Shown here one piece after another: positions 2,537-30,506 of a stretch of 52,997 nt of DNA. The translations under genes were made by a program, and so were the position numbers. How positions within the stretch are numbered: position 1 is the first letter of the stretch; each line of letters opens with the position of its first letter. Source of the DNA: a virus. Taxonomy: Duplodnaviria; Heunggongvirae; Uroviricota; Caudoviricetes. The notes beneath the pieces were generated by a model that worked only from the letters and a program-made list of their open reading frames with translations, did no database searches and was not told the origin of the DNA. The stretch is taken from positions 1 to 52,997 of IMG/VR virus record IMGVR_UViG_2585427779_000013; one strand, 5' to 3'.

Positions 2537-3958
2537 TTAAAAGGATGCGTTATTCTGGTTATTTCGTGGGGAGAATCGGCTTGCTGCCGGACGTTGTTGC
2601 ATTGACTGGATGCAGGCGGACGCCGCGCGAGCCTGGTCGCATGGAATGATGTTGCCGTTATCGTCAAACCGCTGGTAAACAGTCCCCGTTTTCCCGTGAC
2701 GGTTTTTTGAAACAATGATCTCCATGTATTCGCGGGCAACTGATTGTTCGTTGTAGTAGCCGTCGCGGTAGACCATGATGATCCGGTCTGCGTCTTGTTC
2801 AAGATTACCGGAATCACGCAGATCAGAATTGTTCGGGCGCTTGTTCGGTCGTTCTTCAACGCGGCGGGATAATTGCGCCAGCGCCGCCACTGGCACGCGC
2901 AACTCTTTCGCCATCATTTTCAATGACCACGACAATTGCCCTACGGCGAGATCATGACGTTCGGCCTTAGCCAGCTTCATTAACCCGATGTAGTCAATCA
3001 TCACCATTCCAAGATTAGGATGGTCCTGTTTCATCCGTTCGACGGTGGCGCGTATTTCCTCGACCGTTAACTGAGATGCGTCAACAATCCACACATCGAG
3101 ATCGGCAAGGGCACTCATTCCTTGTGCGACGTGCGCCCAACCTTCGTCATCCAGTTTTACCGGATTACGTAGGCAATCCGTTGATAAGTTCCCAGCGCCA
3201 GCGATAGCACGTTCAGTCATCTGATCGAGCGACATCTCAAGCGTGAACAGCAAAACGCCGACCCGCTGACCTTCGCCGCCAGGGTATGGACGTTCAGCCG
3301 CCGCGCGGGCAATTGCCAACGCCAACGCCGATTTACCAGACCCCGGGCGTCCGGCGATAAGCACCAGATCAGTAGCGTTAATGCCGCCTAACATTTCGTC
3401 GAGTGGGTCAATCCCTGTTTTGATGTTGTCAGAGTTCACGCCACACTCCATGCGTTTACTTAGCACTTCCGTGTATTCCTGGACCGCATCGCGCAACAGC
3501 ACCGGGATAATTTGATCTTTTGTTACCTTTAATTTTGAATACCGGGAATCAAAATCTTTCATCGTCTCTTTGACGACTTCAAGCGTCCCTGTTTCCAGTT
3601 TGTAGCGCATATCGTCGATGAGTTCCAACATCTGCCGACGCTGGTGCTCTTCACGTAGTAGCTGTGCGTATCCCTTCAGGTTGGCAGCAGAAGGGCACGA
3701 TCGCGCCGTTTGCATTAGCGGCACAAAGTTTTCATTACCAATCTCATCACCAACCAGTAACGCGTCGATGAGATTTCTGTTTCTGGCTTGCGCACGGATA
3801 ATTTCAAAAGCCCGCTTATATAGCGGAATAGTGAATACTTCAGGATCTAGAGTAGCGAGAACGTCTTGCGCGTTAGGAGTAAGCCCACCTAACAGCAGGC
3901 CACCGATAACCGCAGATTCTCTTTCTTGCCGCAATGAGTTTACTTGTTCGGTTATCAT
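2537..3958 (-). CDS. dnaB: DnaB-family replicative DNA helicase
   Basis: 473 aa; Walker A GRPGSGKSALALAIA, DnaB-like N-terminal domain and RecA-fold C-terminal motifs; GGAGG RBS upstream. Confidence 0.9.
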   Translation of the reverse strand: MITEQVNSLRQERESAVIGGLLLGGLTPNAQDVLATLDPEVFTIPLYKRAFEIIRAQARNRNLIDALLVGDEIGNENFVPLMQTARSCPSAANLKGYAQLLREEHQRRQMLELIDDMRYKLETGTLEVVKETMKDFDSRYSKLKVTKDQIIPVLLRDAVQEYTEVLSKRMECGVNSDNIKTGIDPLDEMLGGINATDLVLIAGRPGSGKSALALAIARAAAERPYPGGEGQRVGVLLFTLEMSLDQMTERAIAGAGNLSTDCLRNPVKLDDEGWAHVAQGMSALADLDVWIVDASQLTVEEIRATVERMKQDHPNLGMVMIDYIGLMKLAKAERHDLAVGQLSWSLKMMAKELRVPVAALAQLSRRVEERPNKRPNNSDLRDSGNLEQDADRIIMVYRDGYYNEQSVAREYMEIIVSKNRHGKTGTVYQRFDDNGNIIPCDQARAASACIQSMQQRPAASRFSPRNNQNNASF

Positions 3959-10491: not shown

Positions 10492-10716
10492 ATGATCGAA
10501 GATAAAGAAGTTGACGGAGAAATTCCTGACGGCGCTGATGAGCTTATCACTTTCGGCGGCGGGCTGTACGAGTTCGAAACGTCTGCGGGGTGGCACGATA
10601 AATGGCCTTTCCCTACTCGCCAGGAATTAAGTGACCGCAAAGCATTCGGCGAAGATGCAGAACGGCTGGCTAATAACAAATGGCTTGATAAGTTCATTGC
10701 GGAGGGTGGCAAATGA
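10492..10716 (+). CDS. hypothetical protein (74 aa)
   Basis: ORF in co-directional early cluster. Confidence 0.45.
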   Translation: MIEDKEVDGEIPDGADELITFGGGLYEFETSAGWHDKWPFPTRQELSDRKAFGEDAERLANNKWLDKFIAEGGK

Positions 10717-10826
10717 ATCTTGCAAAAATTGCCGCATTGCTTGCGGCTTTATCTATCGCCGTGCTGTATCTCAGCGTGTCGCTTTATATCACGGTAGCGA
10801 TCATTAAACTCATTACTAACATGTGA
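10713..10826 (+). CDS. small hydrophobic membrane peptide (37 aa)
   Basis: ATGA overlap with upstream stop; MNLAKIAALLAALSIAVLYLSVSLYITVAIIKLITNM single TM helix. Confidence 0.4.
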   Translation: MNLAKIAALLAALSIAVLYLSVSLYITVAIIKLITNM

Positions 10827-10834
10827 GGCCAATC

Positions 10835-10954
10835 ATGAAAGTCGGTAAGGACATTGTGACGGTCGCGTTTTGCATTATTTTCTTCCTTTTTGTTGTTGTG
10901 TTTTGTGGCGCATTTGCTGCGCTTGTTAGCTTTATTTTCAGAGGGTTGATGTAA
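10835..10954 (+). CDS. small hydrophobic membrane peptide (39 aa)
   Basis: MKVGKDIVTVAFCIIFFLFVVVFCGAFAALVSFIFRGLM; stop overlaps next start (TAATG). Confidence 0.4.
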   Translation: MKVGKDIVTVAFCIIFFLFVVVFCGAFAALVSFIFRGLM

Positions 10955-12678: not shown

Positions 12679-12776
12679 TTATGGACGATACATTGTTTTA
12701 TATGTGCTGTTGCTGGGGTTTTATTGCCTTATGCCTGTTTATCAGGTGGTTTATTGAATACCATATGAGGTGATCT

Positions 12777-22997: not shown

Positions 22998-23138
22998 ATG
23001 GATGACGAATACGTTAATAATTTTATTGTTATGTTTCTTAGTGAAAACTGGCGCATGTTTGAACATTATTGTTTTGAGCGCGGGGAAAATGCTGAAGAAA
23101 TATATCAATATTTAGGCGGGGAGAAAGAGGATGATTGA
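22998..23138 (+). CDS. small protein (46 aa)
   Basis: ATG ORF not in track; overlaps next start. Confidence 0.3.
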   Translation: MDDEYVNNFIVMFLSENWRMFEHYCFERGENAEEIYQYLGGEKEDD

Positions 23139-23328
23139 ATGCCTTATTATTGCGGTTATTCTCCTTTACCTGGCTGGCGTAATTTTAATGGGCGCTTTTC
23201 AGAAAGCTGTTGATAGTGACGGCGTCATTTGGTTCGAGCTAGTCTTCTGGCCTTTCATTACGATATACGCTTTCACTGATGCTATGCGCATTAACATCAT
23301 GCGGGAAATTAAGGAGCGCAAAAAATGA
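23131..23328 (+). CDS. small membrane protein (65 aa)
   Basis: Two predicted TM helices (MIECLIIAVILLYLAGVILMGAF…). Confidence 0.45.
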   Translation: MIECLIIAVILLYLAGVILMGAFQKAVDSDGVIWFELVFWPFITIYAFTDAMRINIMREIKERKK

Positions 23329-23532: not shown

Positions 23533-23560
23533 ATTACCTAACAATGCGAAACTGTAACTA

Positions 23561-23586
23561 CCCGGCCCCGTGCCGGGTTTTTGCTT
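23561..23586 (+). terminator. rho-independent terminator (tR'-like) upstream of lysis cassette
   Basis: GC stem CCCGGC-CCCGT-GCCGGG followed by TTTTTGCTTTGTT. Confidence 0.65.
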
Positions 23587-23602: not shown

Positions 23603-23803
23603 ATGTTCGACAAAATACGGGAGGCGTGCGCGTATGCAGTAGGGGCCGTAACGGCCTTTTTTGGTGCGATAACCATTAATGATGTTGCTGTCTTTGTGGG
23701 TATCTTATCAACCGTAGGCACATTTGCCGTTAATTATTACTTCAAATCACAGGAGAACAAGCGAGCGCAAGAGGAACACGACGCGCGAATGGGGAATAAG
23801 TAA
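23603..23803 (+). CDS. holin (pinholin-like, two TM helices)
   Basis: GGAGG RBS; 66 aa with two TM helices and charged C-terminus; immediately precedes SAR endolysin as in phage 21. Confidence 0.7.
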
Positions 23804-23804
23804 C

Positions 23805-24296
23805 ATGATTAGCCAATCGCTGAAAAATAAGATTATTGCGGCGGCGGCTGGTGGGGCGATCGCTATTGCGGGGATGATGATAAAAGATCTTGAAGGCGTT
23901 GAGTATAAGCCGTACAGAGATGTCATCGGTGTTTACACGATATGTTATGGACACGTCGGAAAAGACATCATGCTTGGGAAGACTTACACGCAATCAGAAT
24001 GCGATGCTTTGTTAAATAAAGATCTACACAAGACCGCAAAAGCGATTGACCCATATATCAAGGTCGAAATATCAGATTTTACCCGCGCTGCACTTTATTC
24101 CTTCGCCTATAACGTAGGCACTACCAACTTCAAAACATCAACCTTATTAAAGCTACTCAATGACGGCAAGAAATCAGAAGCGTGCGCACAGCTTAAACGC
24201 TGGATTTATGCTGGCGGTAAGCAGTGGCAAGGGTTAATTAACCGCCGTGATGTTGAATATGCCGTTTGCGAATGGGGTGAGACATGGACAAGGTGA
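23805..24296 (+). CDS. SAR endolysin (lysozyme, T4/P1 Lyz type)
   Basis: N-terminal Gly/Ala-rich SAR helix, then [34 protein letters not shown]… closely resembling phage 21 R / P1 Lyz by recall; track ORF starts upstream at 23724. Confidence 0.85.
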
Positions 24297-24754
24297 AGAC
24301 GTTAATTATCGCCGTTGTTGTTTGCATTATTGCCGGGCTGACCGCCGTAACGTGTTATTACCAGAGTGAGGCGGCAAGGTTACAGGAAGAAGTCACGGTG
24401 ACGCAAGGTGCACTAAAGACAGCAAGTAACACTATTCAGCAGATGAAGGATCGGAACGCCGAACTGTCAAAACTTGATAAGAGGTATCACGATGAGATTA
24501 AAGCTATCAGATCTGACATTGCCGATCTGCGTGCTGGCATTGATAGCGGTGCTATCCGGTTGCACGTCAACGCCGAGCCAGTGCGATTGCTCGACAATAC
24601 CGGAACCGCCAGCCGCATTGATGGAGCCACCTGTAGACTCACTCCAGACGCTGAATCGGCTTATCTATCCCTCAGAGAACAACTAAAAGAGAAAGATGCG
24701 AAGATCGCCGGACTTCAGAGCTATATCAAAACGCAGTGCTTACGCAAAAAATAA
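24284..24754 (+). CDS. Rz-like i-spanin
   Basis: 156 aa; N-terminal TM helix, coiled coil, C-terminal pattern similar to lambda Rz. Confidence 0.8.
24492..24686 (+). CDS. Rz1-like o-spanin lipoprotein embedded in Rz (+1 frame)
   Basis: [24 protein letters not shown] lipobox then Pro-rich region, like lambda Rz1. Confidence 0.75.
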   Translation: MRLKLSDLTLPICVLALIAVLSGCTSTPSQCDCSTIPEPPAALMEPPVDSLQTLNRLIYPSENN

Positions 24755-24986
24755 CAGCGCGTGGACGTGTCGCCGTTTCCGCCAGCCAGCCATAACCGGG
24801 TCAATCCTTCCCGCGAGCGACGGCGGAATAGTCAAAAACACGTAATACCGGATCATCCATCCCATTAACAGGTCAGGCGCTACCTGGGTAGAAGAAAGCG
24901 CCATTCTCCAGTTTTATAAAATTCTAAAAACGGTACTCATGCAGCGCCGTTTTTAGTGTTTTATAGCATTTGCCTATGGTGGAGAT

Positions 24987-25559
24987 ATGTTAACACTAGA
25001 CGAACTAGACAGGATTTTATTCTGTGATGTTGAAAATGGTTTGCTTTACTGGAAATCACGCCCGCGTAGTGACTTTAGCAATGATTTTACTTGCAGGATG
25101 TTTAATTTTAAGGCCGGGAAGATAGCTGGCGGTATTAATGGCGACGGATACGTCGTTATCCATCATAACGGTAAACCTATATTTGCTCATGATGCCGTAT
25201 GGCTTTTTGCTGGTAATGAATTGATAGATGGGCTTGTTATAGATCACATAAACCATATAAGGAGCGATAACAGGCTAAAAAATCTTAGAATGGTTAGTGA
25301 GTTAACTAATTCAAGAAATCAAAAACTTCATAGCAATAACATTACGGGATATAGCGGGGTAAGAAAAACCAAATCAGGAAAATGGTCCGCGCACATACAT
25401 GTAAACGGTAAGGAAAGGCAAATAGGGACATTTTTAACGATTGATGAGGCTGTTAAAGCCAGAAAGAACGCTGAAGCAATTAACGGTTATCATGATAATC
25501 ACGGGCGAGACATCTATGTTGATCTGCCATATATAGACCCGTGGAATAGAATAAATTAA
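24987..25559 (+). CDS. HNH homing endonuclease (HNH plus AP2-like DNA-binding domain)
   Basis: 190 aa; DGLVIDHINHIRSDNRLKNLRMVSELTNSRN and GYSGVRK…W.A motifs; GGTGGAGA RBS. Confidence 0.75.
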   Translation: MLTLDELDRILFCDVENGLLYWKSRPRSDFSNDFTCRMFNFKAGKIAGGINGDGYVVIHHNGKPIFAHDAVWLFAGNELIDGLVIDHINHIRSDNRLKNLRMVSELTNSRNQKLHSNNITGYSGVRKTKSGKWSAHIHVNGKERQIGTFLTIDEAVKARKNAEAINGYHDNHGRDIYVDLPYIDPWNRIN

Positions 25560-25574
25560 TAAAGGAGTCCTGCG

Positions 25575-26117
25575 ATGGCTAAGGGTAAAGGCATTAAGTT
25601 GCCTCAATTCAAAGTCCCGCTCTTTGAGCATACAACAGTATTCTTCTGCCCTACTCGCGATATGTTTTACGAGTTTTGCGAAAAGGCAGGGATCCCAATC
25701 GAACCTGATTTTGAACTGGCAGGAGGTTTAACACTTACTTGCACTGGCGAGAAAGGCGGTAACTTCTACGTGATCGCAGTATTCGATAATGAGCTGGGTA
25801 CGCTGGTACATGAATGCGCTCACACCACATTCCACGTTTTAAGTGATGTAGGCGTCGTAGCGACCACTGATCCAACTCATCCGGCGAACGAGACTTACGC
25901 TTACATGGTAGGCCGCATCTTTGATGCATTTTTCCCTATCCTGGCCGAATCAAACGAAGCACAGGTTGCAGCAATGCAGGCTGCTGAAGTAGTAGAGCAG
26001 GCATTAGAACAGGCAGAACAGCCGAAGAAAGAAGAAAAACCCGCTAAGAAAGGCAAACGTAAGCCGAAATCAAAAGAAGCGTATGTACCGCGCGTAATGA
26101 GCTTTAAACGAGGCTGA
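25575..26117 (+). CDS. hypothetical protein with HExxH motif and Lys-rich tail (180 aa)
   Basis: LVHECAHTTFH motif suggests a zinc-peptidase-like fold; C-terminal KKEEKPAKKGKRKPK. Confidence 0.5.
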   Translation: MAKGKGIKLPQFKVPLFEHTTVFFCPTRDMFYEFCEKAGIPIEPDFELAGGLTLTCTGEKGGNFYVIAVFDNELGTLVHECAHTTFHVLSDVGVVATTDPTHPANETYAYMVGRIFDAFFPILAESNEAQVAAMQAAEVVEQALEQAEQPKKEEKPAKKGKRKPKSKEAYVPRVMSFKRG

Positions 26118-26119
26118 TT

Positions 26120-26209
26120 ATGATTGCGTCAATATTAACGTTTATGGGTGGCGTGGCATTCGGATTCATTATTTGCCTGTTTATGGTGATTATGTCTATG
26201 CGAGGCTGA
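26120..26209 (+). CDS. mini-ORF 1 of tandem hydrophobic peptide array (29 aa)
   Basis: MIASILTFMGGVAFGFIICLFMVIMSMRG; GAGG RBS 7 nt upstream. Confidence 0.4.
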   Translation: MIASILTFMGGVAFGFIICLFMVIMSMRG

Positions 26210-26211
26210 TT

Positions 26212-26307
26212 ATGGACGCTTACATCATCTCCGGATTAATCGGTGTTTCTGTATTTATGGTGGGATTTGTTATTGCCGTGCTGATAACCGTAAAGAGTAA
26301 ATTATGA
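26212..26307 (+). CDS. mini-ORF 2 (31 aa)
   Basis: MDAYIISGLIGVSVFMVGFVIAVLITVKSKL; same GAGGCTGATTATG context as ORF 1. Confidence 0.4.
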   Translation: MDAYIISGLIGVSVFMVGFVIAVLITVKSKL

Positions 26308-26378
26308 ACTCCTACGATTTCATCTGGTTATTGGTGCTCATCGTAGGTATTGGCGTGAACATTTGCAGGCTATGGTGA
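26304..26378 (+). CDS. mini-ORF 3 (24 aa)
   Basis: MNSYDFIWLLVLIVGIGVNICRLW; ATGA overlap with ORF 2. Confidence 0.4.
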   Translation: MNSYDFIWLLVLIVGIGVNICRLW

Positions 26379-26382
26379 AAAT

Positions 26383-26457
26383 ATGATTGACCCGCTAATT
26401 ATCCTTTCTGCCTGCGTCGCTGTATGGCTGGCGATCATGATATTCATTGAAAGCTGA
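26383..26457 (+). CDS. mini-ORF 4 (24 aa)
   Basis: MIDPLIILSACVAVWLAIMIFIES; GGTGA upstream. Confidence 0.35.
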   Translation: MIDPLIILSACVAVWLAIMIFIES

Positions 26458-26468
26458 AGGTATTCACC

Positions 26469-26543
26469 ATGAATATTTACGATCTCATCTGGTGGTCGTT
26501 GGTCGCCGTCATTATCTATTTCTGGTGGAAGAATGTTGTATAG
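26469..26543 (+). CDS. mini-ORF 5 (24 aa)
   Basis: MNIYDLIWWSLVAVIIYFWWKNVV; GAAGG RBS. Confidence 0.4.
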   Translation: MNIYDLIWWSLVAVIIYFWWKNVV

Positions 26544-26551
26544 GTGAAAGC

Positions 26552-26632
26552 ATGAACGCATACGATATGCTATTGCTGGTGGCTGTTATTACAGTCATTG
26601 CCGTTGATGTGTATCGGGAGCTTAAAAAATGA
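26552..26632 (+). CDS. mini-ORF 6 (26 aa)
   Basis: MNAYDMLLLVAVITVIAVDVYRELKK; AGGTGA RBS. Confidence 0.4.
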   Translation: MNAYDMLLLVAVITVIAVDVYRELKK

Positions 26633-26697
26633 AATGGCTTGATTTCTTTTTCCTGATTGTTGCGATTGTTCTTACCATGACAGCACTGACTCAATAG
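26629..26697 (+). CDS. mini-ORF 7 (22 aa)
   Basis: MKWLDFFFLIVAIVLTMTALTQ; ATGA overlap with ORF 6. Confidence 0.35.
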   Translation: MKWLDFFFLIVAIVLTMTALTQ

Positions 26698-26705
26698 GTG
26701 AGCTA

Positions 26706-26780
26706 ATGGATGTTATCGAAGCCGTATTATTCGTATGTATCGCCGCGTTAATTATTGTTGGGGTGATTATCAATGTCTGA
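26706..26780 (+). CDS. mini-ORF 8 (24 aa)
   Basis: MDVIEAVLFVCIAALIIVGVIINV; AGGTGA RBS. Confidence 0.4.
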   Translation: MDVIEAVLFVCIAALIIVGVIINV

Positions 26781-26841
26781 TAGTGATTTCTTAATTATGG
26801 CTATAAGCACGCTGTTGGTTGTTATTGTTTTCTTCTGGTGA
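26773..26841 (+). CDS. mini-ORF 9 (22 aa)
   Basis: MSDSDFLIMAISTLLVVIVFFW; GGGTGA RBS; overlaps ORF 8 end by 8 nt. Confidence 0.3.
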   Translation: MSDSDFLIMAISTLLVVIVFFW

Positions 26842-26849
26842 GAAATATT

Positions 26850-26993
26850 ATGTTTGAATTTATCGATCTACTGATGTTCTTGCTTTGCGCTGGTGTGCTT
26901 ATTATCGCGTTAATGCTATGCGCATACGTGATTGTAATGATTGGCGCGCTCATTTACAGAGAAGCAAAACAGAGATTTAAGGGTAAACAATGA
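26850..26993 (+). CDS. mini-ORF 10 (47 aa)
   Basis: MFEFIDLLMFLLCAGVLIIALMLCAYVIVMIGALIYREAKQRFKGKQ; GGTGAG RBS. Confidence 0.4.
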   Translation: MFEFIDLLMFLLCAGVLIIALMLCAYVIVMIGALIYREAKQRFKGKQ

Positions 26994-27076
26994 AAGAATT
27001 ATTCGACTGGTTGGAAGTATTAACGTACTGCGCGACGATGGTCGTGTGTTTGTATATTCTGTGTAAATTATATTGA
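26990..27076 (+). CDS. mini-ORF 11 (28 aa)
   Basis: MKELFDWLEVLTYCATMVVCLYILCKLY; ATGA overlap with ORF 10; ends 12 nt before terS start. Confidence 0.35.
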   Translation: MKELFDWLEVLTYCATMVVCLYILCKLY

Positions 27077-27087
27077 GAGGTGACATT

Positions 27088-27573
27088 ATGGCCCGCACGA
27101 AAAAGGCAAAGGCTGAAGACAAAAAGCCAGCAGCCAAAAAGACGGGCCGTCCGCATGGCTATTCAGAAGAAAAGGCATTGGAGATCTGCGAGCTTGTGTC
27201 GGACGGCGAAAGCATTAACAAAATTTCGAAGATGCCTGGTATGCCTGCACGTTCAACAATCCTTAAGTGGTTCCGTGATGTGCCGGAATTTTCGGACATG
27301 TACATACGCGCGAAGGAGATCGGCTTTGAGGTGTTAGCTGATGAAATCATCGATCTCGCTGATGCGCCAGAGAACATCAAAAAGGAAGAGTTAAACAGAC
27401 ACCATTTGATGATTGAAACGCGCAAATGGCTATTAGCAAAACTGCAACCGCGTAAATACGGTGAACGCGTCACGCAGGAAATCGTAGGCAACAAGGAAGA
27501 AGCGCCCGTCCAGGTTGAAGTCACGAAAGAAGAGATCGCCCGCATCGTCCAGGAAGTAGAAGACGAGGTGTGA
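27088..27573 (+). CDS. terminase small subunit
   Basis: 161 aa starting MARTKKAK; basic N-terminus and HTH-like region; directly precedes large terminase with 4-nt overlap. Confidence 0.7.
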   Translation: MARTKKAKAEDKKPAAKKTGRPHGYSEEKALEICELVSDGESINKISKMPGMPARSTILKWFRDVPEFSDMYIRAKEIGFEVLADEIIDLADAPENIKKEELNRHHLMIETRKWLLAKLQPRKYGERVTQEIVGNKEEAPVQVEVTKEEIARIVQEVEDEV

Positions 27574-29054
27574 TTATGTTGTCCATCAAAGAAAGGGTTA
27601 TTCAGTCAAAATGTGAAAACGATGGCCTGTTCTTCAACCGTTATTTCTACAAGCAAGCAAACGGAACGAAGATGTTAATCTCAGGCCATCACATAGCCAT
27701 ACGTGATGCTCTACAACGCGTTATTAATGGTGAGATTACCCGGCTCATCATTAACATTCCCCCAGGGTACGGTAAAACCATGATTGCGACCATTAACATG
27801 ATGGCCCGCTCCCTCGCAATAAATCCCCGCACACGCTTCCTTCACGTTTCATACTCCGACAACCTGGCATTACTTAATTCCTCGACAGTCAGAAGCATGG
27901 TTTGTTCGCAGGAATACCAAAAGCTATGGCCCATGAAGATCCGCAACGATGCCAACAGTAAATCGATGTGGTGGACGGAACAGGGCGGCGGGATATATGC
28001 CGCATCGTCACACGGTCAGATTACGGGTTTTCGTGCTGGTTACATGGAGCCAGGTTTTAACGGCGCGATGATTATCGACGACCCATTAAAGCCCGCTGAC
28101 GCTTACTCTGATGTGATGCGGGATAAGGTAAAGAACAACTACAACGATACGCTTGCTTCACGTCTGGCAGTGCAAACAACGCCTGTTATCGTCATTATGC
28201 AGCGTATCCACTACGATGATTTGTCCGGCTACCTGTTACGCGGTGGCAGTGGTGAGAAGTGGTATCACCTTAACCTGCCAGTGAAGATCGACAATAGCAT
28301 CGACTATTGGGATCTGTACCCGGAAAACGAATTCGCTATTCCTATTGCTCATAACCTGCCGGACGGCTGGCTATGGCCTAAAAAGCACAATGACAGCCAT
28401 GAAGCCGGACTGAAAGCGCACCGTAGGTCATTCGAGGCACAGTACATGCAGCGCCCGCGTAAATTCGACGAGGAAGGCGCGTTATGGACTGAAGCCATGA
28501 TAACCGCCGCGCACCGGATGCAGATAACGCAGGACAAGATCCGCACGGTGATAGCCATCGACCCGGCGACAACATCATCTGATGAGTCAGACGAAACAGG
28601 GATTGTAGCCTGTTCAGCCTATGGTGGCGGCAAGTACGCACAGTATTCTGTAGACGGTGACTACTCAGGCCGCATGTCTCCTAACGATTGGGCGCAAGCA
28701 TCAATTAACGCTTACAACATCCATGAAGCTGACGCGATAGTTATCGAAACCAACCAGGGCGGGGAAATGGCAGAGGCCACGCTACGTAACGCCGGATTCA
28801 AAGGCCGCATTGTTAAGGTGCACGCAAGCAAGGGTAAATTCGCCCGCGCCGAGCCAATATCGGCACTGTATGCACAAGGAAGGGTGGCCCACACAGGCAG
28901 CCTGTACACGCTGGAAAATCAAATGATGGAATACGTGCCAGCTACCGCTAAAAAATCCCCGGACCGCCTCGACGCAATGGTGTGGGGTATCACTGAATTA
29001 AGCCAACCACAGGCTATGGGCCTCATGTTACCGAAGCGCCTGCGCGGATTTTAA
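27570..29054 (+). CDS. terminase large subunit (ATPase/nuclease)
   Basis: 494 aa; Walker A PPGYGKT, Walker B MIIDDP, C-terminal nuclease-like acidic motifs. Confidence 0.85.
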   Translation: MIMLSIKERVIQSKCENDGLFFNRYFYKQANGTKMLISGHHIAIRDALQRVINGEITRLIINIPPGYGKTMIATINMMARSLAINPRTRFLHVSYSDNLALLNSSTVRSMVCSQEYQKLWPMKIRNDANSKSMWWTEQGGGIYAASSHGQITGFRAGYMEPGFNGAMIIDDPLKPADAYSDVMRDKVKNNYNDTLASRLAVQTTPVIVIMQRIHYDDLSGYLLRGGSGEKWYHLNLPVKIDNSIDYWDLYPENEFAIPIAHNLPDGWLWPKKHNDSHEAGLKAHRRSFEAQYMQRPRKFDEEGALWTEAMITAAHRMQITQDKIRTVIAIDPATTSSDESDETGIVACSAYGGGKYAQYSVDGDYSGRMSPNDWAQASINAYNIHEADAIVIETNQGGEMAEATLRNAGFKGRIVKVHASKGKFARAEPISALYAQGRVAHTGSLYTLENQMMEYVPATAKKSPDRLDAMVWGITELSQPQAMGLMLPKRLRGF

Positions 29055-29132
29055 AAACCATCCCACAATCCCCCACAAGTTTTTCTATTTTTCGCGTAGC
29101 AACGCGTAAACATGTATTCAGGAGTAAACATT

Positions 29133-30506
29133 ATGCCATCCAATTTAGAATTGGCGGTTAATGCTGCCTTGTCACAACGCCAGGCGGCCTTTGCCCGCTA
29201 TGCAGCCGCTAACCCATTCACTATGGGGATCGATGCTAAACGTAACGCCGCGTGGAGTGAATACGGATTCAAAGAAGAGCTTACCTATACTGATCTATAT
29301 AAGCTGTATCGTCGCGGTGGTATTGCTCACGGGGCCATTGAAAAAATTATCACCACATGCTGGCGCGATAGCCCGGTGCTGATAGAAGGCACTGAAGACG
29401 AGAAAGCGGAAACGGAAACACCCTGGGAAAGAGAAATAAAGAAACAATTCGATAACCGATTCTGGCGTGTTATTGCTGAATGCGATCGCCGTCGCCTGGT
29501 TGGTCGTTATGCCGGACTATTGATTCACGTCAAAGATAACCAGCCGTGGGATCGTCCAGTAACAAAAGGGGTAGGCATCGCTAAATTCACTCCTGTATGG
29601 GCTGGCGCACTAACACCAAAGGACTTCGATGAAAACCCGGATAGCGATAACTACGGTCTGCCGACATGGTGGGAATACAAAGAACGCATCAACAGCAAGA
29701 CCATCGCAAGGAAAATACATCCAGACCGGATATTTATCTTTGGTGACTATTCTGATGATGCTATCGCTTTCCTTGAGCCATCCTATAACGCTTTCGTTTC
29801 GCTGGAGAAAGTGGAAGGTGGTAGCGGTGAGTCATTCCTGAAGAACGCCGCACGCCAGCTTGCTATCTCATTCGACAAAGAAATTGACTTCCGCTCACTG
29901 GCTGCAACGTATGACTGCGACGTCACAGAGTTACGCGAAAAATTCAATGAAGCCGCAGCGGAAATGAATAAAGGTAATGATGTGATGATGGCGTTACAGG
30001 GCGCAACAGTAAGCCCGCTGGTAACTGCCGTATCTGACCCGTCCGCAACCTATGATGTAAACCTGCAAACCGCCGCCGCTGGTATCGACATTCCAACGCG
30101 TATCCTAGTTGGGAATCAACAGGGTGAACGAGCATCAACTGAAGATCTCCGCTATTTCAATAACCGATGCATGACCCGCCGCCAGGAAATCGGAGGCGAG
30201 CTTGAAGAACTATTCCGCAAACTGGCAGATCTACGCCTTACCAGTGAGCCACGCGACATATCAGTGCTATGGGATGACCTTAACGCTATGACCAAAGCCG
30301 AACTACTGGAAGCGGCACACAAGATGGCGCAAATCAATCAGGCATGTCTTGCTACTGGTGAGCAGGTATTCAGCGGTGATGAGATCCGCGAAGCTGCCGG
30401 ATATGAAGGGCCAACGCAGGAAGTAGAAGTGGAAGACGAGGAAAACGATGATGAAGGTGAAGAAAATAATCAGGCGAATACCTCCAGCCGCGATAATGCC
30501 ATCTAA
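29133..30506 (+). CDS. putative portal protein
   Basis: 457 aa following terL, acidic C-terminus; AGGAG RBS before ATG 29133; assignment by size and gene order. Confidence 0.6.
   Translation: MPSNLELAVNAALSQRQAAFARYAAANPFTMGIDAKRNAAWSEYGFKEELTYTDLYKLYRRGGIAHGAIEKIITTCWRDSPVLIEGTEDEKAETETPWEREIKKQFDNRFWRVIAECDRRRLVGRYAGLLIHVKDNQPWDRPVTKGVGIAKFTPVWAGALTPKDFDENPDSDNYGLPTWWEYKERINSKTIARKIHPDRIFIFGDYSDDAIAFLEPSYNAFVSLEKVEGGSGESFLKNAARQLAISFDKEIDFRSLAATYDCDVTELREKFNEAAAEMNKGNDVMMALQGATVSPLVTAVSDPSATYDVNLQTAAAGIDIPTRILVGNQQGERASTEDLRYFNNRCMTRRQEIGGELEELFRKLADLRLTSEPRDISVLWDDLNAMTKAELLEAAHKMAQINQACLATGEQVFSGDEIREAAGYEGPTQEVEVEDEENDDEGEENNQANTSSRDNAI

Follow-up and report, generated by a model that had tools for sequence, protein, structure and literature searches.

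A variable array of eleven single-helix mini-genes upstream of the terminase genes of a temperate Escherichia coli phage

Small membrane proteins are recognized as a class but have been little mapped, and many are believed to lie hidden in phage genomes. Those represented by AcrZ, KdpF, MgtS, SgrT, and YohP have at most 50 residues, one transmembrane helix, a noncatalytic role and starts of their own, and are readily missed by annotation (PMC12648545, PMC7549839). The locus considered here shares these properties; it lies in a temperate E. coli phage (record IMGVR_UViG_2585427779_000013; the window is the whole stretch of 52,997 nucleotides, whose numbering is used throughout) and consists of 11 mini-genes, with products of 22–47 aa, placed back to back just 5' of the DNA-packaging genes. 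It should be noted that its peptides have no sequence kinship with the AcrZ/YohP class, whose examples are single genes under their own regulation, whereas the array is phage-encoded, joins eleven genes in one operon, and is subject to turnover of whole genes from one close relative to another.

Several other systems resemble the array in part. Type I toxin peptides are 18–50 aa long and very hydrophobic and come from tandemly duplicated loci, so that ibs/sib, ldr/rdl, zor/orz, and hok/sok are similar to it in the smallness and hydrophobicity of the products and in tandem duplication; each of these toxin loci, however, has a promoter, a long leader, and an antisense RNA, whereas the array ORFs abut, run in one direction between phage late genes, and match no Rfam or toxin family. 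In the psm-alpha locus of Staphylococcus aureus and in leaderless bacteriocin operons such as that for aureocin A70, the genes for peptides of 20–45 aa likewise follow one another head to tail, each preceded by an RBS, and these genes also were long unannotated, but their peptides are amphipathic and exported; the array peptides have helical moments of 0.02–0.24 and uniformly apolar cores, and no exporter or immunity gene is found nearby. The filamentous phage genes VII and IX encode very short hydrophobic proteins, back to back and with stop/start overlaps, which are translationally coupled virion cap proteins (32–33 aa) of a membrane-extruded phage, but the array belongs to a tailed phage without a lipid step and has 3–13 variable cassettes. 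The holin/antiholin and SAR-endolysin regulators, such as S21 68/71 and Mu releasin, act by helix-helix contacts in the bilayer and are small, late membrane proteins that, like the array, are encoded near a cassette of pinholin/SAR type; the array differs in that a separate holin is present, most of the peptides seem to lack charged tails, the cassettes are individually dispensable, and one of them resides in phages that lack a classic lysis cassette. Morons and prophage blockers such as HK97 gp15, DicB, and P22 SieA are, like the mini-genes, accessory, variably present, and located between conserved genes, and some of them counter other phages at the inner membrane (PMC3594210, PMC6832061, PMC10883804). 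However, morons bring along a promoter and a terminator and are expressed by the prophage, whereas no such signals were found in the array, and the known prophage blockers are larger than the array peptides or do not span the membrane. Literature searches found no description of the array, and the first-pass annotation, which recognized no described phage module of this kind, is upheld, there being no curated family and no paper on this phage group that describes it.

Layout and coding of the array

The 957 bp at 26120–27076 (+ strand) are tiled by 11 ATG ORFs that cover 95.6% of the region (Table 1). Neighbors are at most 11 nt apart, the spacing ranging from an 8-nt overlap (J/K) to an 11-nt gap, and there are three ATGA stop/start overlaps (B/C, G/I, and M/N). 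All 11 ORFs that the first-pass annotation had proposed for this interval are present, and its statement that each has an RBS-like element or an ATGA overlap is borne out: a Shine-Dalgarno (SD) match of at least 4 nt occurs at −18 to −4 of 10 of the 11 starts, compared with 45% of all positions in the region, and the eleventh start, which has no such match, has an ATGA overlap. Matches of at least 5 nt are found at 6 of the 11 starts and 11% of the region positions. The flanking genes are also those that had been named, an HExxH protein gene on the left and the gene for a small terminase subunit, terS, on the right, the latter being of Sf6 type (PF20901, E = 4e-36).

Table 1. Coordinates of the mini-genes and of features around them
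Feature	Position	Strand	Product or sequence	Remarks
Strong intrinsic terminator	23560..23578	+		25 nt 5' of holin start; 7-bp stem, 6 GC pairs, T tract
Holin	23603..23803	+	66 aa, two TMDs	Gly/Ala-rich first TMD
Endolysin	23805..24296	+	SAR-like N terminus	N-terminal sequence as in phage-21-type systems
HExxH protein gene, left boundary	25575..26117	+	180 aa	Homologue of mEp021 gp49; H79, E80, and H83 invariant
14-nt direct repeat, left copy	26109..26122	+	CGAGGCTGATTATG	HExxH-gene stop, SD, start of A
Mini-gene A	26120..26209	+	29 aa, MIASILTFMGGVAFGFIICLFMVIMSMRG	pN/pS 0.27
14-nt direct repeat, right copy	26201..26214	+	CGAGGCTGATTATG	Stop of A, SD, start of B
Mini-gene B	26212..26307	+	31 aa, MDAYIISGLIGVSVFMVGFVIAVLITVKSKL	pN/pS 0.26, 27 nt variants; C-tail net +2
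Mini-gene C	26304..26378	+	24 aa, MNSYDFIWLLVLIVGIGVNICRLW	ATGA overlap with B; pN/pS 0.14
Mini-gene D	26383..26457	+	24 aa, MIDPLIILSACVAVWLAIMIFIES	pN/pS 0.27; most widespread cassette
Mini-gene E	26469..26543	+	24 aa, MNIYDLIWWSLVAVIIYFWWKNVV	pN/pS 0.27
Mini-gene G	26552..26632	+	26 aa, MNAYDMLLLVAVITVIAVDVYRELKK	pN/pS 0.24
Mini-gene I	26629..26697	+	22 aa, MKWLDFFFLIVAIVLTMTALTQ	ATGA overlap with G; pN/pS 0.19
Mini-gene J	26706..26780	+	24 aa, MDVIEAVLFVCIAALIIVGVIINV	pN/pS 0.26
Mini-gene K	26773..26841	+	22 aa, MSDSDFLIMAISTLLVVIVFFW	8-nt overlap with J; pN/pS 0.28
Mini-gene M	26850..26993	+	47 aa	Basic C-terminal tail REAKQRFKGKQ; pN/pS 0.30
Mini-gene N	26990..27076	+	28 aa, MKELFDWLEVLTYCATMVVCLYILCKLY	ATGA overlap with M
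Small terminase subunit (Sf6 type), right boundary	27088..27573	+		Own GAGGTGA SD 11 nt past N stop

The coding strand of the region is T-rich (AT skew −0.19 to −0.30), T occupying 54% of the second codon positions, and it is a general point for intergenic smORFs that T-rich sequence gives hydrophobic ORFs by default (PMC11188072). The skew would accord with the array having no protein function and being a spacer that is merely translated, for example against Rho-dependent polarity ahead of terS, or that acts as DNA or RNA, but the remaining evidence makes this scarcely conceivable. In 1000 dinucleotide-preserving shuffles the number of hydrophobic ORFs averaged 1.9 and did not exceed 7, and the highest coverage was 63%, none of the shuffles coming near the observed arrangement, in which hydrophobic ORFs occupy 95.6% of the + strand but none of the − strand. 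No RNA family was matched at E values up to 1 (Rfam, 24700–27700), and no inverted repeats are present in the region. Phages with a terminase of Sf6 type generally have their pac site in or near terS, not upstream of it. A cos or pac site within the array was considered and is unsupported, with no repeats or inverted repeats to indicate one and a terminase of Sf6 type.

A spacer without protein function is also contradicted by selection on the amino acid sequences, beyond the mere keeping open of frames. In a comparison set of 64 related loci from mEp021-type coliphages and prophages, all 11 mini-genes have pN/pS ratios of 0.14–0.30 in their own frames, as opposed to 0.57–1.94 in shifted frames; the pooled ratio for the array is 0.25, compared with 0.95 and 1.27 in the shifted frames and 0.10–0.11 for the flanking genes. 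Variable sites number 103, 74, and 183 at codon positions 1, 2, and 3, respectively, the start codon and length are kept in about 98% of the homologous mini-gene copies (∼331 of 336), and indels and alignment breakpoints between relatives sit at ORF borders. Together, the frame-specific purifying selection, the integrity of the ORFs, and the position of the indels indicate that these are genuine genes and not random hydrophobic frames, as had been suggested; the comparison of synonymous and nonsynonymous changes in related prophages, proposed at the same time as a check, gives purifying selection on each of the 11 frames. The 957 bp are thus one polycistronic array, in which 11 genes are initiated separately and each is selected for its amino acid sequence, and the pN/pS values largely refute the reading in which the array has no function as protein.

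Properties and relationships of the peptides

Judged by their sequences, all of the array peptides look like single-pass helices with an N-out/C-in orientation, and the hydrophobicity profile gives one helix in each, in agreement with the first-pass annotation. Their mean hydrophobicity is 0.28–0.79 with helical moments of 0.02–0.24, and the stretches without charged or amide residues extend over 13–30 residues; with a length of 50 aa or less, one bilayer-spanning apolar stretch, and low amphipathicity, they have the features of small single-pass membrane proteins. The net charge of the N-tail is zero or negative in 15 of 15 peptides and that of the C-tail is zero or positive in 14 of 15. The C-tail charge is clear in M (net +4), modest in B (+2), and +1 in C, E, G, A, and N, with none in D, I, J, and K.

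The proposal that the peptides form one paralogous family stands for subgroups only. C, E, and G are paralogues that share the pattern MNxY[DE], C and E having 71% nucleotide identity across the first 41 nt, and I and K group with the H and L cassettes of other phages (M-x-x-x-D-F). The paralogy of I with H and L has z values of 4.9–5.3; it should be recognized that the within-peptide shuffle null overstates the similarity of array peptides because it destroys their shared layout of polar head and apolar core. Similarity between F and J and between M and N is marginal, and A, B, and D stand apart. A single 11-member family was therefore rejected, similarity beyond composition being confined to the C/E/G and H/I/K/L subgroups. 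The acidic residue that the N termini share does not prove common descent and is more readily explained by a common topology.

Searches of Pfam, PHROGs, NCBIfam, and PADLOC with the array peptides (all but K in the case of PHROGs) gave no usable family match, and NCBIfam and Pfam at E values up to 10 gave only noise-level matches below their cut-offs. In the PHROGs scan of 10 peptides only M was matched, to phrog_920 (holin), with a nonsignificant E value of 0.029. The peptides match no family model for characterized small membrane proteins (AcrZ, KdpF, MgtS, YohP, etc.) and show no homology to toxins of Hok/Ldr/Ibs/TisB/ShoB/DinQ type (NCBIfam and Pfam, E up to 10). For M, a word-seeded search of 5.8 billion proteins gave homologues in 20 clusters, all at least 72% identical, and a profile search over 1.84 billion representatives found only 2, so that either search gave close lineage relatives only; a 434-aa entry clustered with M is an artifact of the clustering.

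These properties bear on the possibility that the peptides damage the membrane in the manner of type I toxins or holins, being directed at lipid without a specific protein target and, alone or as hetero-oligomers, bringing about a late depolarization or permeabilization that would shut down the host or help lysis. Peptides of Ibs, ShoB, TisB, and DinQ type are similar in size and extreme hydrophobicity, GxxxG-like motifs are present in several of the array helices, and there are many copies in the one operon, but low amphipathicity speaks against surface-active pore formers, and the failure to match toxin families in NCBIfam or Pfam at E values up to 10 points the same way. There is also no match to an antisense RNA family in Rfam, no excess of promoter-like sites on either strand, and no space for long 5' UTRs like those by which type I toxins are controlled. 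Early depolarization would trigger a pinholin/SAR system prematurely and cut the burst, and 11 such late genes would therefore probably be costly. Membrane damage is thus distinctly unlikely as the function of the array.

Cassette turnover and the mobility of cassette A

The 64 loci contain 54 distinct arrays, of 318–1154 bp and 3–13 ORFs each. The cassettes keep a fixed order and belong to at least 20 peptide families, none of which is universal. Near-identical phages differ by whole cassettes: a phage with a 98%-identical HExxH protein is without A, C, and M, and the first slot of the array is occupied by A, A2, or A3 or is empty. Alignment of the loci shows the array to be a hot-spot for the gain, loss, replacement, and duplication of whole mini-genes, with their order and reading direction preserved. 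The cassette repertoire may be accessory and partly redundant. Ten of the 11 peptide families are restricted to this phage lineage.

Cluster 0, in which D and B are merged through fusion ORFs, and the I/H/L group are each found in 63 of the 64 loci and G in 62, whereas C is found in only ∼11. All 49 nucleotide-level copies of D are intact and unchanged in length, all 51 copies of G are intact, and the D peptide is identical in a locus whose HExxH protein shares only 62% identity. Two copies of E have decayed in relatives, the start codon of K has been lost (ACG) in three, and J and K always co-occur in the first 16 loci compared. The N of this phage is a divergent allele of a commoner 27-aa form (pN/pS 0.26 in its allele group); the common allele is represented by 9 distinct nucleotide sequences encoding 1 protein. 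Although D and the common N allele are very highly conserved, some arrays lack them.

The array is directly 5' of terS in all 64 loci, and N, its last gene, is extremely conserved, as could be expected of helpers in assembly or packaging that tether or organize the terminase or procapsid assembly at the membrane. Such a role is nevertheless highly improbable. Two arrays (L051 and L058) have no N and another (L021) has no D, G, or I, hardly any residues of the peptides, except in M, reach the cytoplasm to contact a soluble partner, and in phage rV5 cassette A is not near packaging genes.

The identical context that the first-pass annotation had noticed before the first two ORFs is a 14-nt direct repeat, CGAGGCTGATTATG, one copy of which stands on each side of A; the two junctions flanking A are identical at 20 of 30 positions, whereas random pairs reach 17 at the 99.9th percentile, and only one repeat copy is found in L019, a relative in which A is absent. 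Cassette A is also present, at 92–97% nucleotide identity, in ∼90 unrelated virulent rV5-like phages. In rV5 itself it lies between ORF137 and ORF138, within small genes of no assigned function, and is adjacent to no known lysis gene. Most rV5-like phages carry A, but navn, slur12, slur16, and SophiaRose are cleanly without it, one repeat copy remaining. At the nucleotide level, therefore, A is a mobile cassette that has moved between unrelated phages. That direct repeats bound every cassette was considered and rejected, since only A has them and the other junctions share at most the SD and ATG; inverted repeats at cassette ends, as in integron-type arrays, were looked for and none was found in 26000–27150.

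Transcriptional context and possible functions

The neighbors of the array are the lysis genes, an HNH endonuclease gene, the HExxH protein gene, and the terminase genes, and the holin-endolysin-Rz genes lie 1.4 kb upstream in the same orientation. No promoter-like site was found on the + strand inside 26120–27076; promoter-like sites number 7 as compared with 11.1 expected, two weak ones being on the − strand, and hairpins within the array are limited to two low-grade matches. Terminators equivalent to that preceding the holin gene are annotated in mEp010 and mEp044. Since the array has no promoter-like and no convincing terminator-like site of its own, is co-oriented with the lysis genes and the terminase, and lies downstream of a tR'-like terminator, it is probably transcribed late, in an antiterminated late operon; the terminator, placed like lambda tR', would be the point of read-through for the transcript that carries the array.

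The HExxH protein has no match in Pfam, NCBIfam, or PADLOC. Its AF2 model has a pLDDT of 75, and neither Foldseek (E ≤ 0.001) nor a sequence profile gave a match in the PDB. One homologue is labeled "PolyVal metallopeptidase," a label that is not confirmed.

The reading that we favor, although tentatively, is that the array encodes late-expressed inner-membrane microproteins, each helix of which may pack on a larger inner-membrane protein and alter its activity. Ribosomes would start on each ORF at an SD of its own or by termination-reinitiation at the ATGA overlaps. The products, being too short to emerge from the ribosome before termination, would be inserted post-translationally, through SRP to YidC/SecYEG, as is the 27-aa YohP (PMC7549839, PMC12648545). 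The acidic N terminus is predicted to face the periplasm and the C terminus, which is neutral or basic, the cytoplasm; since just 0–9 residues project from each face of the bilayer (the basic C-tail of M has 11), the peptides would act within the membrane only. Their mode of action may be like that of AcrZ, KdpF, MgtS, and SgrT on host proteins, and the targets are envisaged as host proteins rather than the lysis proteins of the phage itself, candidates being transporters or DNA-entry channels that other phages use, membrane-embedded defense effectors, and the insertion and quality-control machinery. Late expression, however, would leave little time for host manipulation to pay off and counts against host targets, and a phage-specific partner, for example the pinholin or the SAR endolysin, would likewise be in keeping with the restriction of 10 of the 11 families to this lineage.

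The latter consideration leads to the main rival explanation, a real but minor possibility, in which the peptides are modulators of lysis timing that delay or advance pinhole formation and endolysin release through helix-helix contact or small effects on the membrane potential, so that the cassette content would act as a strain-specific lysis clock. The holin and endolysin, which by comparison with S21 and R21 we take to be a pinholin/SAR pair of phage-21 type, have the Gly/Ala-rich first TMD and the SAR-like N terminus of such systems, in which TMD-TMD contacts and the proton-motive force are governing factors. The distance of 1.4 kb, the common orientation, and presumably a shared late transcript would bring the peptides together with them, and the lineage restriction and the weak, nonsignificant resemblance of M to a holin PHROG (E = 0.029) are in the same vein. 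However, a hairpin (a terminator in the annotation of mEp021 and mEp013), the HExxH gene, and here the HNH gene intervene; the arrays range from as few as 3 genes to as many as 13, with no universal member; and 8 of the 11 peptides appear to lack the charged C-terminal tail that is typical of holins and antiholins. Also, cassette A lives in rV5-like phages, which are reported to be without a classic lysis cassette (PMC7344957), and in rV5 it is away from the known lysis genes.

Within the preferred reading of helices that pack on inner-membrane proteins, a more specific proposal, which we regard as doubtful, is that the array is a new accessory module of rapidly reshuffled transmembrane "interferer" helices, each jamming a different host inner-membrane protein, for example membrane-spanning abortive-infection effectors or the inner-membrane channels through which the DNA of rival phages enters. 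New cassettes would be born by local duplication and could pass even between unrelated phages, because the 3' end of the cassette has a copy of the SD/stop motif that it displaces, so that the flanking genes would stay translationally coupled through any insertion or excision.

The array is a natural experiment, consisting of ∼1 kb of nothing but selected helices of 22–47 aa, with dozens of natural variants by gain, loss, and replacement in culturable K-12 phages (mEp010, mEp013, mEp044, mEp554, and MagusPhagus); cassette A is polymorphic also in BASEL-type rV5-like phages. These variants make the benefit of microproteins to a virus, and the birth, duplication, and exchange of their genes, directly testable. 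The array also exposes an annotation gap, in that standard annotation misses almost all of its ORFs: in RefSeq records for 35 complete E. coli genomes the region is empty or is given ORFs in the wrong frame, and an exact look-up in a protein collection returned only three array peptides (of at least 29 aa), all as "hypothetical." The first-pass annotation was silent on the whole-cassette variation, on the presence of A in virulent phages, and on GenBank entries; some array ORFs are already entered as hypothetical proteins in PHANOTATE-based GenBank records.

Genomic setting and coding capacity of the array

The window belongs to a temperate coliphage of the mEp021 or "mEpimmI" group, with about 88% nucleotide identity to MagusPhagus, mEp554, mEp010, mEp044, mEp021, mEp515, and mEp013; of 5426 complete E. 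coli genomes, 35 contain prophages at about the same identity to it. All eleven ATG ORFs that the first-pass annotation placed between the HExxH gene and the small terminase gene (terS) are present on the plus strand at its coordinates (designated A, B, C, D, E, G, I, J, K, M, and N, 5' to 3'), with junctions ranging from an 8-nt overlap to an 11-nt gap and an ATGA common to three pairs. Hydrophobic ORFs cover 95.6% of the plus strand of 26120-27076 and are absent from its minus strand; the best of 1000 dinucleotide-preserving shuffles contained 7 such ORFs with 63% coverage. T accounts for 54% of codon position 2. The RBS-like elements reported before the ORFs are borne out by Shine-Dalgarno (SD) matches of at least 4 nt at 10 of 11 starts (background 45%) and of at least 5 nt at 6 of 11 (background 11%), and the identical GAGGCTGATTATG context 5' of ORFs 1 and 2 proved to lie within a 14-nt direct repeat.

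Features of the lysis-to-terminase region of the window
Feature	Position	Remarks
Strong intrinsic terminator	23560-23578	25 nt 5' of holin start codon; 6 GC pairs and T tract
Holin, 66 aa, two TMDs	23603-23803	First TMD Gly/Ala-rich
Endolysin, SAR-like (signal-anchor-release) N terminus	23805-24296	
Rz	24284-24754	
HNH/AP2 endonuclease	24987-25559	
HExxH protein, 180 aa	25575-26117	Homologue of mEp021 gp49
Mini-gene array	26120-27076	
Sf6-type small terminase	27088-27573	Followed by large terminase and portal
Portal	29112-30506	

Sixty-four loci, each with an HExxH gene and terS, were collected (15 GenBank/RefSeq records, 46 IMG/VR contigs, the window, and two metagenomic contigs whose HExxH homologues diverge furthest, with 62 and 67% identity), and in all 64 an array occupies the same place. 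Their 54 distinct array sequences span 318-1154 bp and hold 3-13 hydrophobic mini-ORFs. Pairwise Nei-Gojobori counts, which for such non-independent sequences give the direction of pN/pS and not its exact magnitude, yielded a pooled value for orthologous mini-genes of 0.25 in the predicted frames versus 0.95 and 1.27 in the shifted frames (terS, 0.10; HExxH gene, 0.11), and the synonymous/nonsynonymous comparison proposed in the first-pass annotation, made on a larger data set, gave, for each of the 11 genes, 0.14-0.30 in the predicted frame and 0.57-1.94 when the frame was shifted. In that larger set, variable sites in the 11 window genes number 103, 74, and 183 at codon positions 1, 2, and 3. 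The common allele of N has the same 27 residues in nine different nucleotide sequences, and both it and peptide D are unchanged where the HExxH protein has fallen to 62% identity. Because truncation or loss of the start codon affects only about 5 of 336 nucleotide-level copies in the 53 other arrays, and because of the substitution pattern, both chance frames and a spacer merely kept open are ruled out; the in-frame pN/pS and the intact copies in relatives uphold the view that these are real genes. The same pattern essentially excludes a function exerted other than through protein, which is considered extremely improbable.

In RefSeq/PGAP records the array region is blank or carries a longer ORF whose frame or strand is wrong; some mini-ORFs appear as hypothetical proteins in PHANOTATE-based records. 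PGAP calls a 64-aa ORF crossing mini-gene E in another frame in strain PAR (locus L004, 2373-2567) and a 129-aa antisense ORF in strain LSU61 (locus L013, 2031-2420, minus strand), and these are likely miscalls, being at odds with frame-specific selection.

Peptide families and cassette turnover

At least 20 peptide families are recognizable and their order is conserved across arrays. Families F (32 aa), H (23 aa), and L (22 aa), all found in relatives, are missing from the window. No family is universal: one array consists of A2, B, and N only, and two are without N; the first slot holds A, A2, or A3 or is empty. A role in packaging or assembly is very unlikely, since some arrays have no terS-proximal gene. 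In pairwise alignments of arrays the breakpoints lie at mini-gene ends, among the first few or the last few bases. In one phage, with an HExxH protein 98% identical to the window's, A, C, and M are absent, and turnover is therefore fast relative to point divergence. The proposal that the eleven mini-genes are paralogous holds for the subgroups C/E/G, with MNxY[DE] in common (nucleotide identity of C and E, 71% over their first 41 nt), and H/I/L/K, which share M-x-x-x-D-F (z up to 6.1, the within-peptide shuffle null overstating significance); it fails for the whole set. A, B, and D are set apart from the rest, and paralogy of F with J and of M with N is marginal. A natural in-frame B-D fusion of 60 aa with two hydrophobic helices occurs in one contig (L045, IMG/VR UViG_3300045988_063525, 3261-3443).

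Cassette A has moved between unrelated phages. About 90 virulent myoviruses of the rV5-like group (Vequintavirus), which have nothing else in common with the window phage, carry the 90-nt gene and its flanks at 92-97% identity; in rV5 itself (locus L007, DQ832317, 2506-2595) the gene occupies the 95 nt that separate ORF137 from ORF138 and are left unannotated. Exactly 96 nt are missing at this site in navn, slur12, slur16, and SophiaRose, and in an alignment of the rV5-like phages GCGAGGCTGA occurs once where the site is empty and twice, on either side of the insert, where it is filled. The mEp021 group has the same pattern, the empty site of one collected locus (L019) being AAACGAGGCTGATTATGGAC and the window having two copies of CGAGGCTGATTATG. 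Within the repeat lie the upstream gene's stop codon and the downstream gene's SD, so gain or loss of A leaves the translation signals of its neighbors intact. Flanking direct repeats were looked for around the other cassettes and none were found; for these, homologous recombination between arrays, by way of neighboring mini-genes that the arrays have in common, would be the simpler explanation of exchange. The 29-aa gene is unannotated in most Vequintavirus records but annotated in those of the BASEL collection. About 18 records named "Campylobacter phage" (GenBank MG0656xx), which give Campylobacter jejuni as host, are at this locus near-identical to rV5-like coliphages, and their host label looks doubtful.

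Peptide properties and possible function

The mean hydrophobicity of the peptides is 0.28-0.79 on the Eisenberg scale and the helical moment of all is 0.02-0.24, from which, in agreement with the first-pass annotation, one hydrophobic helix per gene is predicted that is membrane-spanning rather than amphipathic. The short N-terminal head has a net charge of zero or below in 15 of 15 families examined, usually with Asp or Glu at residue 5 or 6, and the C-terminal end a net charge of zero or above in 14 of 15, being clearly basic in M and B. The positive-inside rule and the analogy with the Pf3 coat protein predict an N-out/C-in topology. Peptides of 22-47 residues leave the ribosome before co-translational targeting is possible; for the 27-aa YohP, SRP inserts the protein post-translationally via SecYEG or YidC (PMC7549839, PMC12648545).

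The peptides have no match in Pfam, PHROGs, NCBIfam, or PADLOC. A search of 5.8 billion proteins gave no relatives of family M below 72% identity, and a profile run against 1.84 billion representatives found only 2. Array DNA other than A was found only in the mEp021-type lineage. The sole paper on these phages is silent about the region, and, no curated family matching either, the module was rightly regarded as unrecognized. Phage-encoded small membrane proteins as such are a known kind; what the searched sources do not describe is an operonic run of up to 13 of their genes with cassette-level turnover, slot-wise allelic replacement, or a cassette that an SD-containing direct repeat lets hop from one phage to an unrelated one. 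In single respects the array is similar to type I toxin repeats, the psm-alpha operon, morons, antiholins, and the Ff gene VII/IX pair, but it lacks at least one tested defining feature of each; bacterial small inner-membrane regulators would be closest in working mode, although the peptides belong to no named family.

The analysis shows a conserved, modular set of single-helix genes, and it is from their sequences that a function may be suggested. Since hardly any part of the peptides would lie outside the bilayer, they would have to act inside the membrane, and binding to larger proteins there is tentatively put forward as the likeliest mode. Direct, toxin-like action on lipids is improbable, as type I toxin-antitoxin features are missing and early depolarization would be costly. 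The main rival is that the peptides tune lysis. Pinholin/SAR systems rely on helix-helix contacts and membrane potential, and the lysis module (23603-24296), with its Gly/Ala-rich holin TMD and SAR-like endolysin start, looks like the phage-21 type; 10 of the 11 families are also lineage-restricted. Lysis tuning is considered rather unlikely. For protein binding within the membrane, host targets would be favored over phage partners because cassette A functions in a wholly different phage and gene context, because single cassettes can be dispensed with and vary in the manner of accessory genes, and because selection is purifying, not diversifying.

Expression and neighboring genes

Promoters and terminators were sought by consensus scan only, which found no promoter-like site on the plus strand of 26120-27076 and two low-grade hairpin matches within the array; promoter-like sites in the wider region are rarer than in shuffles. 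No Rfam family matched. All genes from holin through tail have one orientation, and the terminator 5' of holin reproduces the lambda PR'-tR' layout; this tR'-like element implies late-gene antitermination. The mEp021 group is Nus-dependent and uses antitermination (PMC11893012). On these three grounds the array most likely lies within the late transcript.

The HExxH protein, with 121 clusters at 62% identity or more, is found solely in E. coli prophages. Its predicted model has a strand-strand-helix-strand-strand unit, the HExxH helix, and a long helix, and matched no solved structure; the C-terminal tail is lysine-rich and disordered. One homologue is labeled "PolyVal metallopeptidase" in one database entry. 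Across relatives, the HNH (AP2-type) gene occupies three positions in the 3-kb lysis-to-terminase stretch (Rz/HExxH, lysozyme/Rz, or HExxH/array intervals; examples at window 24987-25559; L017, 2752-3273; L006, 2022-2507; L018, 4497-5000), which suggests homing-endonuclease mobility. The portal gene is named "anti-CBASS protein Acb1 family protein" by RefSeq in the prophages (loci L004, L005, L010-L014, and L016); its precomputed Pfam match is Phage_portal_3, an NCBIfam scan of the window's portal gave no match, and the Acb1 name is probably a propagated misnomer. Further small ORFs of 30-65 aa, with an SD and strongly hydrophobic segments, occur outside the array, including two in tandem in the early region and another two immediately 5' of the late terminator (10713-10826, 10835-10954, 12681-12773, 23002-23115, and 23131-23328).
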